Source: a virus
Taxonomy: Duplodnaviria > Caudoviricetes
IMG/VR virus record: IMGVR_UViG_3300010163_001518
Span: 1-64,000 of that record
Length of the DNA: 64,000 nucleotides
Strand: one strand, 5' to 3'
The notes beneath the pieces were generated by a model. That model had not been told where the DNA came from and searched no databases. It worked only from the letters and a program-made list of their open reading frames with translations. Shown piece by piece: positions 28,710 to 34,220 of this stretch. The position numbers and the translations under genes are program-made. The stretch's first letter is position 1. Every line of letters begins with the position of its first letter.

Positions 28710-30776
28710 CTATTCGTTCATGGCCCTCAAACGGGCGAGGGCGTCGTCTGCCTTCTTGCCGAGGAACTCGTCCCCGGACGCCTTCTTCTTGTGGGCCCGG
28801 CTTGTGGCCTCGGCCCTGTATTCCTTATCCAGCGGGAGCGAGATGCACTTCGAGGGCCGCTCGGCCTTGATCGTCAAGTCGATCATGCCGACCGCCTCGG
28901 AGGGCCGTCCGCCCTCCTCCCCCCGGAGCTCATAGGGCCGCGTCATGCTGTCCAGTATCTCGCGCATTTCGCGCTCCTGCCGCTTCTGATCGCGGAGGTG
29001 CTTCTCAAGTGCCGCTTGCGAACAGTGGGGCCCGAAGGCCAGCAGCTCGGGGGAGACGGCCTCGCATATCTTCCGGCCCTCCTCGTCGAAGACGTAGAGC
29101 TTCGTCACGTCGTCGATGTCCCACTTCACGCCGACCGTCTTCCCGACGTAGTGCGAGAGCTCGTAGTCGGTGTAGACGGTGCCGAACTTGTTGATGCCGT
29201 AGTTGTAGACCCGGGCCGTCGCTGCCTTCATGAGCAGCATCGCGGCGTATTCCCTGGGCGGTGCGGCCTTCTCGTAGCGTTCGCCGTTCTCAAAGAGCTC
29301 GATCGGCGTGACCCACTTCTCGCCCGCATCCTTGAGGCCCCGGTGTTCCCGGGTGTGGTACTTTTCGTTCTTCCACTTCGTCCAAACCTCGAAGAACTCC
29401 TCCATCGTGAGCAGCTCCCCGCGCTCGAGCATGGCGTCGACGTCCTTCTGCCGCTTCGCGTAGGTCTTGGAGCCCGTGAGGGTTCCGACGTAGGACTCGA
29501 ACCACTTCGAGAACTTGGAGCAGACCGTCCCGAAGAACCGCTCGATCGGTTTGTCCCACGGCTGATAGGGGAGCGACCGTCCGACCTCCTCGATGCCGAT
29601 TGACTGATAGAAGCCCACGGTCTCGGCATCGAAGCTGAACTCGATGTTCCGCTTCTTCCGGCTCTGTCCCGTCATGGTCTGCGCCGTGTAGTCCTTGCCG
29701 TTGTCGACGTGGAGGATGTGGGGGACGCCGCCCGGGTGGGTGTAGATCATCTTGACGAGGCTCTCCTTCAAGGTCTGACTGTTGGCGTCTATACAAGCGA
29801 CGTCGCCCACGATCGCCCGGCTCCTCATATCCAGCCACGCGACGAGCTTCGGGCGGACGGCCTTGATCTTGCCGTTCGGGGCCGTCCACTGTACCCAAAA
29901 ATCGAAAGTGTGCTCGTCGCCGACGACGTACTCCATGACCTTGAGGCTCGTCGCATCCCGGCGTCCCTTGAGCATCATCTTGTTCTTCCACTCCCTCGAG
30001 CCGTTGGCGGCGAGGTAGCGGGCCGAGGCCGCGCCCCGGCTGTCCATGAGATACTTGACATACCGGGCGACGGTCTTGATGCTCGGGAACTCCGCCCAGC
30101 CCCGGCCCTCTGCGATCTCCCCGAACTTCTCGTAGAGCATCTCGATCGTCCCGAGGTTGGCGGCGAAGCGGCGGTCGAACCATATATTCTCGATGACCGC
30201 CCGCTGCTCCGGCGTGAGGCTTGGGAAGGTGTCCTTCTCCCGGGGCTTCCTGCATAGGGACAGGGCCCGGAAGTAGTCCCGGTTCTGCCCGTCCTCCTTT
30301 TCCAGCTTGAGCGCCCAGGCGTTCGCCTTGAGGACGTTGTCGACGTAGCGGTAGAGGGTCGGGAGGCTCACGCCCAGACCCAGCGCGTAGCGTTCGGCGT
30401 AGGCCGTGCGGTCGGGGCCGTCGTAGTCGATGAAGTCCTGGACGCGGGCCGCGAGCTCGACGGCCTCGTAGTATGCCTTCTTGTTCTGCTCGATGTAGTG
30501 ATTGAGGTCGGCCCCGACATACCAGGGGGCCACGTCGGCTCTCTTGTCTATGATGACATCCCTCCCGTCTACCTTCTGCGCGGCCTTCCACGCCTTGCGC
30601 CCCTTCGGGGAGAGGGAGGAGACGGAGATCATAACCTGATCTTTGCCGCCGCCCTCTCGGGGCTGTGTTTTGGTCTTGTATTGCTGCGGGTTGCGTTTCA
30701 CGCGCTTTTGAAAAGTGTCGTATGCGACCCCCTCAAAGGTTGCGGCCTCCTCGAGACCGATGAACACGTCCGGCAC
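28710..30776 (-). CDS. DDE transposase (MuA-like)
   Basis: 688 aa; VVGDEH, LHVDNGKDY, KPIERFF catalytic motifs. Confidence 0.95.
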   Translation of the reverse strand: MPDVFIGLEEAATFEGVAYDTFQKRVKRNPQQYKTKTQPREGGGKDQVMISVSSLSPKGRKAWKAAQKVDGRDVIIDKRADVAPWYVGADLNHYIEQNKKAYYEAVELAARVQDFIDYDGPDRTAYAERYALGLGVSLPTLYRYVDNVLKANAWALKLEKEDGQNRDYFRALSLCRKPREKDTFPSLTPEQRAVIENIWFDRRFAANLGTIEMLYEKFGEIAEGRGWAEFPSIKTVARYVKYLMDSRGAASARYLAANGSREWKNKMMLKGRRDATSLKVMEYVVGDEHTFDFWVQWTAPNGKIKAVRPKLVAWLDMRSRAIVGDVACIDANSQTLKESLVKMIYTHPGGVPHILHVDNGKDYTAQTMTGQSRKKRNIEFSFDAETVGFYQSIGIEEVGRSLPYQPWDKPIERFFGTVCSKFSKWFESYVGTLTGSKTYAKRQKDVDAMLERGELLTMEEFFEVWTKWKNEKYHTREHRGLKDAGEKWVTPIELFENGERYEKAAPPREYAAMLLMKAATARVYNYGINKFGTVYTDYELSHYVGKTVGVKWDIDDVTKLYVFDEEGRKICEAVSPELLAFGPHCSQAALEKHLRDQKRQEREMREILDSMTRPYELRGEEGGRPSEAVGMIDLTIKAERPSKCISLPLDKEYRAEATSRAHKKKASGDEFLGKKADDALARLRAMNE

Positions 30777-31057: not shown

Positions 31058-31474
31058 CTACTTCCGGGCCACGGCTCGGGCGAGGGCGACGCCCACGCCC
31101 ACGAGCGCCGTCGCCTGGACGACGGGGTCGGGGAAGTTCAGCAGCACGGCGGCGGCGGCGAAGCCCAGCGCCGCCACGGCGGCGAGCCCGAAGACGATTG
31201 CCCCGTCCAGCAGCACGTCGGCGAACTTGACCGCCCGGCCCTTGAGCTTGAGCACGGCCTCGGCCCGTTTCCGGCGCTCCTCATTCTCAAGTAAATTGAG
31301 AACGAAGTCCGCCGCCGCGAGGTCGGCCTCCACCTTCTCAAACTGCGCCTCCCGTCCCGGGCGGGCCCGCATGGGAGCCCGGGGGTCGCCGACCGCCCGC
31401 TTCTGCCGGAGCAACTCGAGCCGGAGCGACTCGGCCCAGGCCCGGGCCTCCTTCGTGGTGACGGCCTTGTTCAT
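31058..31474 (-). CDS. Hypothetical membrane protein
   Basis: Two C-terminal TM segments. Confidence 0.65.
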   Translation of the reverse strand: MNKAVTTKEARAWAESLRLELLRQKRAVGDPRAPMRARPGREAQFEKVEADLAAADFVLNLLENEERRKRAEAVLKLKGRAVKFADVLLDGAIVFGLAAVAALGFAAAAVLLNFPDPVVQATALVGVGVALARAVARK

Positions 31475-33015
31475 GTCTGCCCTCCTTTCTGCGCTTGTGA
31501 GAGCCTTTTCTTTGTTACGGCTATAGGGAACTCCTCGATCTCACTCGCCCATAGACAGGTTTCGGGGCCGTTGAGCCGCTCCCATATCAGAGGAAAGCCC
31601 CCTATCCCGTCGAACAGGCTCGCCAGCGTCGGCGGGCGTCTATAGTAAGCAGAGAGCCGTCTTAATATCCACGTCCACGGCGGGAGCGCGATGGAGTTGC
31701 CCAGGGCCTTGTATCGGGTGGTGTCGGAGCATTCCCGGGGCTTGCCCTTGCTGTCCACCCATGGGCCGATGTCTGTCCACCCATCCGGGAAGCCTTGGAG
31801 GCGCTCGCACTCTAAAGGTGTCAGCCGGCGGATGACATCGCTTGTCTCGGGATCGACGATGATGTTCGCCTTTGTTGAGTCTCCTCCGCACGGAGTCCGC
31901 AACGTCGCACCGATGTCGCTCTCGTTCCACCATCCTGCGCCTGTGTTTTGAAAGGCCATGACAACGGGCTGCTCGTGATTGCAGTTGAGCGTCGGGGCAA
32001 GCCCCCGCATGATTTCTGTGTTCGCTTGCCCGGTCGCCATGATGAGCGGCGTATAGTCTGACACGCGGCCCGCGTGATCTCCGACAAGAGTACAAACGGT
32101 CTTTCCGTCGCCGTTTCCCCGGGCGTCATAGACGGCGGGAGTCTGCGCCGTGCAAAGCGTCGGGGACTTCTCGACGGTGTAATCAATTCCCGCTCCGGCT
32201 CCGGCCTGCCATTTGAACGTGGCACACACGACGGGTTGATGCCCGTGCTCTTGGGCCCGAAGCGTCCCCGCAAGCTCTACACACACATCCATAAACCGCC
32301 CGCCTTGATCGTTCACGCAAAAGAGAGTTTGGTCGTTGCTGCATTGGAGCGTCCCAGAGAGCTCCTCTTGAATTAGAGCCCCTTTTCCTCCTCCCGAACA
32401 TCCACCGCGGACTCTAACCGTGAGCGCTCGAGAAGGGCTCGCTCGAGCTCGGGTGGCATCGGCTTTCCCCTCCTCCGAGATCGCCGGAGTATCCCCTTGC
32501 AAGCTCTCGCGCTCAAAGAGTATTTCGGGTGCGGTGAGTCCTCCAAAATCCACGACAAGCGCGATTCGACGGCGACGTTGGGGGACTCCCCAAAACTGTG
32601 CATCAAGAACTCTGTAGGCAAGAGACCACCCGTCTCCATAGTAGGCGTCTGCCAGGGGCCAGCGACCCCGGGGAGGTAGTGGAACGTCGGGCGCGTCCGG
32701 TTCTGCGATACGGATTGTCTCCTCGAGGACGGCCTTAAAGTCCTCTCCTTTGTTGCTTGTGAAGGCTCCGGGCACGTTCTCCCACACCATGAACCGGGGG
32801 CGGATTTCTTGCCCCGTTCTGCCTCGTTTGATGTCTGCATCTCTAAGCTCCTTTACCAGTCTGATCTGCTCCATAAACAGGCCAGAACGGGCCCCGGAGA
32901 GCCCTTCCCGCTTTCCCGCGATGGACAGGTCTTGGCAGGGGCTCCCGCCGATGACCGCATCCACGGGCGGGGCGGTATAGCCAGATATGGAGGTAATGTC
33001 TCCCAGGTGTTTCAT
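31471..33015 (-). CDS. DNA cytosine-5 methyltransferase, circularly permuted (motifs III-X first, then I-II)
   Basis: AAGGAGG RBS before MKHLGDI; GGSPCQD, WENVPG, QRRRR, RRLTPLECERLQGFPD, YKALGNS, then SLFDGIGGF and WASEIE at the C-terminus. Confidence 0.9.
   Translation of the reverse strand: MKHLGDITSISGYTAPPVDAVIGGSPCQDLSIAGKREGLSGARSGLFMEQIRLVKELRDADIKRGRTGQEIRPRFMVWENVPGAFTSNKGEDFKAVLEETIRIAEPDAPDVPLPPRGRWPLADAYYGDGWSLAYRVLDAQFWGVPQRRRRIALVVDFGGLTAPEILFERESLQGDTPAISEEGKADATRARASPSRALTVRVRGGCSGGGKGALIQEELSGTLQCSNDQTLFCVNDQGGRFMDVCVELAGTLRAQEHGHQPVVCATFKWQAGAGAGIDYTVEKSPTLCTAQTPAVYDARGNGDGKTVCTLVGDHAGRVSDYTPLIMATGQANTEIMRGLAPTLNCNHEQPVVMAFQNTGAGWWNESDIGATLRTPCGGDSTKANIIVDPETSDVIRRLTPLECERLQGFPDGWTDIGPWVDSKGKPRECSDTTRYKALGNSIALPPWTWILRRLSAYYRRPPTLASLFDGIGGFPLIWERLNGPETCLWASEIEEFPIAVTKKRLSQAQKGGQT
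32373..32840 (-). CDS. Nested alternative-frame ORF within the C5 MTase (M.EcoHK31I beta-like)
   Basis: 155 aa; AAAGGAG 7 nt before ATG; ESRLSWILEDSPHPKYSLSARACKGILRRSRRRGKPMPPELERAL. Confidence 0.7.
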   Translation of the reverse strand: MQTSNEAERGKKSAPGSWCGRTCPEPSQATKERTLRPSSRRQSVSQNRTRPTFHYLPGVAGPWQTPTMETGGLLPTEFLMHSFGESPNVAVESRLSWILEDSPHPKYSLSARACKGILRRSRRRGKPMPPELERALLERSRLESAVDVREEEKGL

Positions 33016-33363
33016 GTCTTCCTCCTTTTCGTGATCGCCTGGGTCGATAGCATCGGCGAGTCGGCTGAACTGCTCCTCATACTGCCAACGAAGGGCGGAG
33101 GCCAGGCTCTCCTGCGTCATCCCCTCCACGGGGCCGAGGTTGGTGTAGTAGCCATTCACGAAGATGGCCCCCGGGTCTGTGGCGAGGATGGTCTTGATTT
33201 CCCGAACGTCGGCGGGGTCAAAGATGAACTCGTTGTTTTTGTCGATGTCGGGCCAGAAACAAGCGGCCTCCCATCCGCGCCCCTCCTTGTAGAGGGCAAT
33301 CCAGGCGATGCCGTCCCGAGCTTCCTCGAGAACTTCCCGGGCTGTAGTTCTAAGACTTGCCAT
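33016..33363 (-). CDS. Hypothetical phage protein, in frame with the MTase and lacking a stop
   Basis: MASLRTTAREVLEEARDG...; reads directly into MKHLGD. Confidence 0.6.
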
Positions 33364-33392
33364 TTGCTGCTGCTCCTTCCTGTTGTGTGGTG

Positions 33393-33557
33393 TCAACCGA
33401 CCGAGGCCGGGACGACTCCGATCTTGTCGGTGTGTTTGTGGAGGATGACGAGCTCGCCGTTCTGCTTCTGCTTGATGACGAGCCAGTTCTCCGGGGCAAG
33501 GCCCGCCTTGCCGAGCCTGATCTTCTGCTTCCGCGTGGGCTTCTTGCCGTTTCTCAT
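33393..33557 (-). CDS. Small basic phage protein (first early gene)
   Basis: MRNGKKPTRKQKIRL...ENWLV; RBS AAAAGGAGG. Confidence 0.75.
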   Translation of the reverse strand: MRNGKKPTRKQKIRLGKAGLAPENWLVIKQKQNGELVILHKHTDKIGVVPASVG

Positions 33558-33639: not shown

Positions 33640-33690
33640 ATTATATTTAACAAGTGAGGAATTGTCAATAGGTTTTTCCTCGATTGTTAA
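33640..33690 (-). promoter_or_regulatory. Early lytic promoter with overlapping inverted operator repeats
   Basis: TTGACA (33663-33668), 17 bp, TATAAT (33640-33645); 15-bp inverted repeats 33647-33661 and 33676-33690, 13/15 match. Confidence 0.85.
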
Positions 33691-33716: not shown

Positions 33717-34220
33717 ATGGAAATTGTATTCTCGGATGTTGGATGCAGGATTGCGGGACGCATCAAAGACCTCGGCCTCAAGCAGTTGGACATCTGCAAT
33801 AAAACAGGGCTTTCGACCACGGCCTTGAGCCAATATTGCACGGGGAAAAGAGTCCCTGACACGGTATCGCTCTACAAAATCGCGACCGCCCTCGGCGTGT
33901 CGATGGAGTGGGTTTTAACGGGTGAGGATTTAACGGTCGAGGACGTGCGTGACGCCGCGCTCGATCTCGCCCAAATCAAAAAAGAACAGGGGCTCACCTG
34001 TGACGGGAGCCCCCTCGACAACATCGAAGCCGATCTTGTCGCCATGTTCCGGCTTCTGCCCCCGTCCCATAGGGAGGAGGTGTTTGACCTCGTCTACTTC
34101 AAGTACAAGCGCCACATAGAAGGGGAAAAAGAGTCTATCTACTGGACGTATTCCGACGAGAGCAGCGACGAAGGAAGCGGCCCCGCCGAAGGCCATAAGA
34201 CCCACGATGAGACCGCTTGA
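33717..34220 (+). CDS. Prophage repressor (XRE HTH)
   Basis: Divergent from early operon; LKQLDICNKTGLSTTALSQYCTGKRVP HTH; RBS AAAGGAGG. Confidence 0.9.
   Translation: MEIVFSDVGCRIAGRIKDLGLKQLDICNKTGLSTTALSQYCTGKRVPDTVSLYKIATALGVSMEWVLTGEDLTVEDVRDAALDLAQIKKEQGLTCDGSPLDNIEADLVAMFRLLPPSHREEVFDLVYFKYKRHIEGEKESIYWTYSDESSDEGSGPAEGHKTHDETA

Follow-up and report, generated by a model that had tools for sequence, protein, structure and literature searches.

A reading frame nested in phage C5 DNA methyltransferase genes is probably an overlapping gene for an accessory chain

Introduction

Does a long open reading frame (ORF) that lies out of frame within a DNA methyltransferase gene encode a protein of its own, and does that protein work with the enzyme? 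The question is raised by a locus in the first 64,000 nucleotides (nt) of the IMG/VR virus record IMGVR_UViG_3300010163_001518 (Duplodnaviria; Caudoviricetes), a 72.7-kb record that is rated complete; this stretch is referred to below as the window. The window carries a gene for a C5 DNA methyltransferase (the host gene) and, within it, on the same strand and in the +1 frame relative to the methyltransferase frame, an ORF of 155 codons (the nested ORF) that extends from just upstream of motif VI (W205-E-N-V) across motif VIII and about 60 codons beyond. An initial annotation, made from the sequence alone, had described this ORF over motifs VI to VIII together with a ribosome-binding site of its own (AAAGGAG, 7 nt, ATG), and both were found again in the ORF list and in the sequence. 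It had further proposed that the gene is dual coding and gives rise to a two-chain enzyme resembling M.EcoHK31I. The comparative analysis presented here indicates that the nested frame is retained, has a separate start and is under selection in its helical hairpin, and we conclude that the nested ORF is probably a genuine overlapping gene whose product works with the methyltransferase as an accessory second chain.

Results

The nested frame is kept open in homologs

The window by itself proves little about the nested frame, since the frame of this one gene stays open in 6.6% of synonymous-shuffling trials. The decisive evidence is comparative. We compiled a set of 80 IMG/VR loci whose main proteins are 43 to 59% identical to the window methyltransferase. 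In tblastn, all 80 matched the nested protein significantly, always in the same relative frame and over 141 to 221 open codons, and in 79 of them the nested frame had no internal stop. The lone locus with such a stop (L020, positions 1679 to 2146; …KQS*KRS…) has it in the disordered leader described below, and its downstream hairpin is intact. For 67 distinct sequences, synonymous shuffling led to an expectation of 2.7 stops per locus and a median probability of an open frame, P(open), of 0.03. The initial annotation had named conservation of both frames in homologs as a check on its proposal, and stops in the nested frame thus proved to be rare compared with this expectation. Stops were found elsewhere: the other alternative frame (the third frame) contained 1 to 13 over the same stretch, and the nested frame contained 12 to 28 in the parts of the gene outside the nested ORF. 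For the upstream 80 nested codons alone, shuffling predicted 1.36 stops per locus, and a single stop was observed in 63 loci. In a scan of species genomes that is blind to gene layout (see below), at least 98 open codons preceded the hairpin module in 76 of 80 loci, and three of the four loci with fewer are cut by a contig end.

Selection changes frames along the overlap

To establish on which frame selection acts, we compared the three frames in 64 unique loci. (i) Between motifs VI and VIII, the main frame had an identity of 68%, compared with 48% for the nested and 45% for the third frame. (ii) Over motif VIII, the corresponding values were 89%, 69%, and 67%. (iii) Over the 36 codons that follow the nested QILE, the order changed: the nested frame was now the most conserved, with an identity of 70% as opposed to 46% for the main and 41% for the third frame. 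In the same sense, the most variable codon position was the main-frame wobble position over motifs VI and VIII and the nested wobble position from about codon 13 past QILE. We also counted codon changes in the last part of the overlap in 37 close nearest-neighbor pairs of fused genes, namely, those in which the methyltransferase is encoded by one ORF. Read in the nested frame, 136 changes were synonymous and 38 nonsynonymous, whereas the same pairs, read in the methyltransferase frame, showed 10 synonymous and 160 nonsynonymous changes. These numbers indicate that, at the protein level, purifying selection currently acts on the C-terminal third of the nested ORF. By this comparison of sequences, the methyltransferase frame drives the overlap over motifs VI to VIII, with the nested frame as its passenger, and the roles are reversed in the last stretch. 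Although the upstream 80 nested codons showed no additional constraint on their sequence, stops are kept out of them. Most of the pattern ESRLS.ILE, which the initial annotation had quoted as a sign of likeness to a beta chain, is a consequence of motif VIII being encoded in the methyltransferase frame.

The nested start is conserved and points to internal initiation

The nested ORF begins just past the main-frame residues K-E-M-R, upstream of motif VI. An ATG or GTG codon is present at the same place in all 63 loci compared, although the main-frame dipeptide encoded there varies (HD, NG, RD, DA, SG, NA, ND, DE, DV, and HG). The first codon of this dipeptide always ends in T, as opposed to 38% of the His, Asp, and Asn codons gene-wide. 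A motif resembling a Shine-Dalgarno (SD) sequence is located 4 to 17 nt upstream of the nested start in 63 of 63 loci, and in 57 of 62 loci an AGR codon is used for the Arg of the neighboring main-frame E-M-R, compared with 30% gene-wide. No conserved slippery heptamer was found near the nested stop across 64 loci, the sequence A_AAG_GGG being present in the window only. The stop-free leader, the retained start, the SD-like motif, and the lack of a conserved heptamer argue for internal initiation and not for frameshifting. The view of the initial annotation that this is a real, selected, and separately initiated coding frame is thus upheld by the open frame in homologs, by the frame-specific selection, and by the conserved start and SD sequence.

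The nested gene belongs to a very large family

A profile (A1) built from 43 nested proteins was used to search 1.84 billion representative proteins. It matched 4,913 clusters at an E value of 1e-3 or below, including 735 at 1e-30 or below; the match to the window had an E value of 2.3e-64. In GenBank phages, tblastn located the nested protein beneath genes labeled as a single methyltransferase or as a hypothetical protein. We inspected directly the DNA of seven distant phages for an open +1 frame and found it, with the same C-terminal module, in each. In Streptococcus phage Javan422, which has a GC content of 37% and a nonpermuted enzyme, the gene contains 35 nested-frame stops, none of which lies within the 126-codon nested region (P(open) = 0.0024). 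The nonpermuted dmt gene of phage P1 has an open nested frame of 163 codons (P(open) = 0.010). The remaining five cases are Caulobacter phage DMCA (nonpermuted), Mycobacterium phage Omega (gp127), Pseudomonas phage TC7, Enterobacter phage CobraSix, and the T4-like Morganella phage vB_Mm5. The presence of the nested gene in distant phages and with nonpermuted enzymes shows that it is old and independent of circular permutation and of the LPD15 domain found in the window. It was annotated as such in none of the 11 annotated phage records inspected, and a full-text search of the literature, which covers few subscription journals, returned papers on M.EcoHK31I but no description of it. By sequence similarity, the nested ORF is a member of a very large unnamed family of genes nested in C5 methyltransferase genes of phages and mobile elements, and the corresponding methyltransferase clade spans permuted and nonpermuted as well as fused and split forms.

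Natural variants fuse the nested frame to the second half of the enzyme

Many of the proteins matched by the nested profile are long and consist of the nested N terminus running in frame into target-recognition modules and motifs IX, X, I, and II. The best 150 profile matches align from near the start of the profile, namely, the part dictated by motifs VI to VIII, and 24 among them are complete forms of this fusion. An example of such a layout is locus L084, in which a complete alpha ORF of 184 amino acids (aa) with motifs III to VIII ends 20 residues past motif VIII and is overlapped by a beta ORF of 512 aa that begins at the nested start. To determine how frequent the different layouts are, species genomes were scanned with the hairpin pattern alone, so that the scan was blind to layout. 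The 80 loci obtained comprised, roughly, 37 fused permuted genes, 9 fused nonpermuted genes, 8 alpha/beta genes (about 10%), and about 15 genes with a main ORF that terminates within the target-recognition region; several of the latter that were checked are followed by a separate ORF with motifs IX, X, I, and II. A one-base insertion or deletion (indel) in the linker converts the fused into the alpha/beta layout. The nested sequence was seen exclusively inside C5 methyltransferase genes of this clade. As in a Rosetta-stone argument, the in-frame fusions to the target-recognition region and motifs IX, X, and I suggest that the hairpin belongs with the enzyme; they argue for a partnership and fall short of proving that the short form binds the enzyme.

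Enzymes in three pieces exist as well. Two independent metagenome assemblies (L082 and L083) contain an identical enzyme made of three ORFs, namely, an alpha ORF of 213 aa, an ORF of 236 aa in which the nested frame runs into part of the target-recognition region, and an ORF of 281 aa that holds the remainder with motifs IX, X, I, and II. The agreement of the two assemblies indicates that this split is a real sequence and not an assembly error. The following observations on unusual members were made in addition. (i) Many members of the family, such as L170, L112, L132, L139, L142, and L164, are split again and have a separate ORF of 160 to 220 aa, often in another frame, that carries motifs IX and X, plus I and II if the enzyme is permuted. 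In one of them, that of Mycobacterium phage Omega (gp127/gp128; L170), the three ORFs correspond to alpha, to the nested ORF, and to an ORF with the target-recognition region and motifs IX and X. (ii) Gp14 of Faecalibacterium phage FP_Toutatis (L172, positions 1144 to 1749), annotated as a DNA methyltransferase of 201 aa, is a chimera: its first part, with motifs III, IV, and VI, is read in the methyltransferase frame, the reading changes to the nested frame ahead of motif VIII, which is consequently out of frame, and the hairpin is at its end. It is either a frameshifted gene or a sequencing error. (iii) In the beta-type protein P0196 (605 aa), GFP and GWTDIG of motif IX are separated by an insertion of about 190 residues. 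This insertion is similar to an HNH homing endonuclease that has a helix-turn-helix (HTH) motif and may be an in-frame mobile insertion in a methyltransferase.

The predicted product is a disordered leader followed by a basic helical hairpin

In the AlphaFold2 model based on alignment A1, residues 1 to 88 of the nested protein have no secondary structure, with predicted local distance difference test (pLDDT) scores of 44 to 57, and helices are predicted at residues 89 to 98, 111 to 124, and 130 to 153 with pLDDT scores of 81 to 96. The conserved residues gather in the segment KY.LS.KAC.GIL.RA.RRGK.LP..L..AL, which corresponds to a hairpin with a basic loop; invariant are Y107, L109, S110, C114, G116, R120, K126, L132, and L136. 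From about residue 113 on, the coding sequence of the hairpin coincides with the variable linker located after motif VIII of the methyltransferase. The model of a natural beta-type protein gave the same picture of disordered leader and hairpin; its target-recognition region is poorly modeled (predicted template modeling score [pTM] of 0.39), and the placement of the hairpin relative to the enzyme is unreadable from it.

Similarity searches returned little for this product. Foldseek with the AlphaFold2 model yielded no match at an E value of 1e-3 or below. The best VIA-align hits of the model (Z score of 5.5) were generic helical hairpins, which is uninformative and gives no sign of a new fold. 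Scans of the nested protein and six distant versions against Pfam, PHROGs, and NCBIfam detected no family, the nested product had no match to PF00145 at an E value of 1 or below, and a sequence search of the Protein Data Bank (PDB), with the single protein as well as with the profile, provided nothing usable. In the ESM Atlas, the nested protein is found only in clusters named "hypothetical protein." No relation between the nested profile and the main-protein profile was detected with hhalign. The hairpin might correspond to the stretch located after motif VIII in ordinary C5 methyltransferases; when aligned to Escherichia coli Dcm, the nested profile is placed exactly on this stretch (residues 284 to 337), although not significantly (probability of 0.8%; E = 0.07).

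The host gene encodes a circularly permuted methyltransferase in an early operon

The host gene matches the Pfam families PF00145 (E = 1.9e-33) and PF18828 (LPD15; E = 5.5e-26) as well as NCBIfam TIGR00675. Motif residues were read as invariant positions in alignment A2, and the protein carries the C5 motifs IV (PCQ), VI (ENV), VIII (QxRxR), IX, X (GNS; residues 566 to 568, main frame), and I (FxGxGG). Motif IX stays in the main frame, at residues 523 to 538, as the initial annotation had stated. The motifs follow each other in the order III, IV, VI, VIII, a long target-recognition region, IX, X, I, and II. The location of motif I at the C-terminal end shows that the enzyme is a circular permutation. 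In the model of a permuted relative, the block of motifs IX, X, I, and II (model residues 316 to 427) had its best match in plant DRM methyltransferases (Z score of 4.3; 24 to 28% identity). The positions of all features are compiled in Table 1.

Table 1. Location of the nested ORF, its parts, and the features surrounding it in the window
Feature	Position	Strand	Description
Nested ORF	32373..32840	minus	155 codons plus stop; ATG start; wholly inside 31471..33396
Nested start ATG	32838..32840	minus	Last two bases of GAT (D) and first base of GCA (A)
Shine-Dalgarno sequence AAAGGAG	32848..32854	minus	7 nt (CTTAGAG) before the nested ATG; encoded by methyltransferase K-E codons
Predicted disordered leader, nested residues 2-88	32577..32837	minus	Passenger of motifs VI-VIII; frame kept stop-free
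Predicted basic helical hairpin, nested residues 93-140	32421..32564	minus	Consensus LSQILE..P..KY.LSAKAC.GIL.RA.RRGK.LP..L..AL
Host gene	31471..33396	minus	641-codon ORF; LPD15 domain, then circularly permuted C5 DNA methyltransferase
Motif VI (E206-N-V) of methyltransferase	32773..32781	minus	Overlaps nested residues W-C-G-R-T
Motif VIII (Q273-R-R-R-R) of methyltransferase	32566..32580	minus	Overlaps nested residues P-N-V-A-V-E
Motif IX (RRLTPLECERLQGFPD) of methyltransferase	31783..31830	minus	Residues 523-538; main frame, outside the nested ORF
Motif I (LFDGIGGF) of methyltransferase	31594..31617	minus	Residues 594-601; towards the C-terminal end
Sigma-70 promoter TTGACA-17 nt-TATAAT	33640..33668	minus	12 of 12 consensus matches; faces the divergent repressor gene

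The listed start of the methyltransferase ORF is a TTG at position 33396, with which the ORF would overlap the last part of the DUF6906 gene ahead of it. The ATG at position 33363 (minus strand), with GGAAGGAG about 9 nt ahead of it, is more likely to be the start and would give a protein of 630 residues. The early operon is preceded by a divergent HTH repressor gene (33717 to 34220, plus strand) and the promoter, which are followed by the DUF6906 gene and the methyltransferase with its nested gene; downstream of these are an ORF of 138 aa, an HTH gene, and a Mu-type transposase gene (28710 to 30776). The promoter is the probable early promoter of the operon that holds the methyltransferase gene, and its combination with the divergent HTH repressor gene looks like the early-promoter/repressor switch of a Mu-like prophage.

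Discussion

The comparative data raise the question of what the nested gene is for. In the mechanism that we propose, an early mRNA of a Mu-like prophage would be translated twice over the same DNA. One translation would produce the LPD15-C5 methyltransferase; the other, initiated at the internal AAAGGAG-ATG in the +1 frame, would produce a small protein composed of a disordered leader of about 90 residues and a conserved basic helical hairpin of about 45 residues. Judging from the fusions, this protein may serve as an accessory second chain, in assembly or in DNA binding beside the target-recognition region. In split variants, the reading from the same start and in the same frame continues through the target-recognition region and on to motifs IX, X, and I to form beta, with alpha ending after motif VIII. 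It is because the same frame continues into these parts of the enzyme in natural variants that we consider an accessory-chain role probable; translation, binding, and function of the nested protein are what we infer from this pattern. The earlier proposal of a two-chain enzyme from one dual-coding gene is therefore backed as far as the natural alpha/beta variants are concerned, while for the window itself the function is extrapolated from them. Several points weigh against an accessory chain. The hairpin has neither an informative structural relative nor a family annotation, and the whole case for its role is carried by the fusions. Many family members are split elsewhere too, and some of the alpha/beta layouts could be decaying genes. 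Finally, the start lies about 100 codons upstream of the hairpin, which is unexplained if the hairpin alone matters. A more far-reaching version, which we regard as possible rather than probable, is that the whole clade, from Clostridia prophages to Mycobacterium phage Omega and P1 dmt, consists of obligate two-chain enzymes from dual-coding genes. The nested hairpin would then be supplied in trans beside the target-recognition region and become the beta N terminus after a split, with one-base linker indels switching between layouts.

Among the alternatives, the most probable is that the nested gene is translated but that its product, for example, a regulator, a nucleic acid binder, or an antidefense protein, acts apart from methylation and merely shares the DNA. 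The hairpin is indeed small, basic, and helical, with no match to a methyltransferase-like fold; it would be made from an early operon, hhalign detects no relation of the nested profile to the main protein, and the enzyme encoded by fused genes has all ten motifs in one chain. We nevertheless consider this unlikely in view of the restriction of the nested sequence to these methyltransferase genes and of its repeated in-frame fusion to the target-recognition half of the enzyme. The nested frame of fused genes could also be a relic that is needed in the split alpha/beta state only and is open because lineages switch by 1-nt linker indels. Both layouts do exist one indel apart, and the position of the nested stop varies between loci. 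Such a relic is very unlikely, however, given the 136 synonymous versus 38 nonsynonymous nested-frame changes in the hairpin region of close fused pairs; the frame kept in 79 of 80 fused genes and the start and SD sequence kept in 63 of 63 unique loci likewise indicate that selection acts in the fused state.

The remaining explanations dispense with a separately initiated protein or with a protein altogether. Programmed frameshifting could operate as a +1 shift out of the methyltransferase frame after motif VIII or as a -1 shift that leads from the nested frame back into the target-recognition region. The window offers the heptamer A_AAG_GGG, with GGAGGAGG ahead of it, at a distance of 3 codons from the nested stop, and products joined in this way do occur as beta-type fusions. 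In the other 63 loci, no slippery heptamer is conserved around the nested stop, the QRRRR codons of the window (CGT CGC CGT CGA) form no rare-codon cluster, and frameshifting does not require the roughly 100 open upstream codons, the start codon, and the SD sequence, all of which are nevertheless conserved, so that we judge it highly improbable. An open frame that arose by chance, with an accidental ribosome-binding site, might be suspected in the window, where the GC content is about 60%, many long alternative-frame ORFs are present, P(open) is 0.066 for the gene alone, and AAGGAG is the preferred K-E codon pair. All comparative tests speak against it, including that of the 37%-GC Streptococcus phage, in which all 35 stops of this frame are located outside the nested region of 126 codons; the open-frame, frame-identity, wobble, start-site, and close-pair tests rule chance out and leave it a practically negligible probability. 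Taken together, an overlapping gene for an accessory second chain is the reading that we favor.

To our knowledge, bacteria and phages rarely have long overlapping genes on the same strand with selection on both frames, and such genes are discarded by annotation pipelines. Here, a nested gene of about 150 codons recurs in thousands of protein clusters and is present in the model phages P1 and Mycobacterium phage Omega. Phage orphan cytosine methyltransferases matter for restriction evasion and serve as tools; if the nested product is a partner chain, such enzymes have been expressed and assayed minus a component. With P1 dmt, a genetic test is immediately feasible in E. coli, and the fused, permuted, and split enzymes of the family form a natural series in which the evolution of overlapping genes and multichain enzymes can be studied.

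Several known systems share single features with this locus. The Rz/Rz1 pair of phage lambda consists of a spanin gene embedded in the +1 frame of another, with its own start and with a product that partners the product of the host gene. The nested ORF is likewise an embedded +1-frame phage gene with its own start, its partnership being deduced; Rz and Rz1 act in lysis and not in DNA modification, and the proteins are unrelated. M.AquI, with its alpha and beta chains, is a naturally split C5 methyltransferase, and complementing fragments of C5 methyltransferases have been engineered (PMC3404938, PMC2836561). Like these, the alpha/beta variants of the present family divide after motif VIII, in a variable region that tolerates splitting. 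They differ in that the start of beta is located about 100 codons further upstream, within the coding sequence of alpha and in another frame, and in the window the enzyme is fused, with the short nested product alone being separate.

The system named by the initial annotation, M.EcoHK31I of E. coli HK31 (YGGCCR), has, by the published description that cites Lee, Kam, and Shaw (1995), a beta chain that is encoded wholly in another frame of the alpha gene and carries motif IX, and an alpha chain that has motifs I to VIII and X and the target-recognition domain but lacks motif IX; the chains are described as cooperating (PMC2836561). As in M.EcoHK31I, the second ORF of the window is located entirely within a C5 methyltransferase gene, in another frame of the same strand. 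Compared with what is published on M.EcoHK31I (PMC2836561), the differences are that motif IX of the window is in the main chain, that the nested product contains no methyltransferase motif, and that the host enzyme is of a different, phage-type clade, permuted, and equipped with an LPD15 domain. The claimed likeness to the M.EcoHK31I beta chain is thus unsupported, the nested ORF lacking motif IX and its profile having no match in PDB or Pfam, and, as far as this description goes, the nested product is not an EcoHK31I-type beta chain. Circularly permuted C5 methyltransferases, finally, are known from plant DRM enzymes, M.BssHII, and engineered permutants (PMC5944983). The host gene resembles DRM and M.BssHII in placing motifs I and II after motif X. 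Its nested gene is independent of the permutation, being carried also by the nonpermuted enzymes of Javan422, P1 (dmt), and DMCA and by 9 of the 80 loci of the genome scan.

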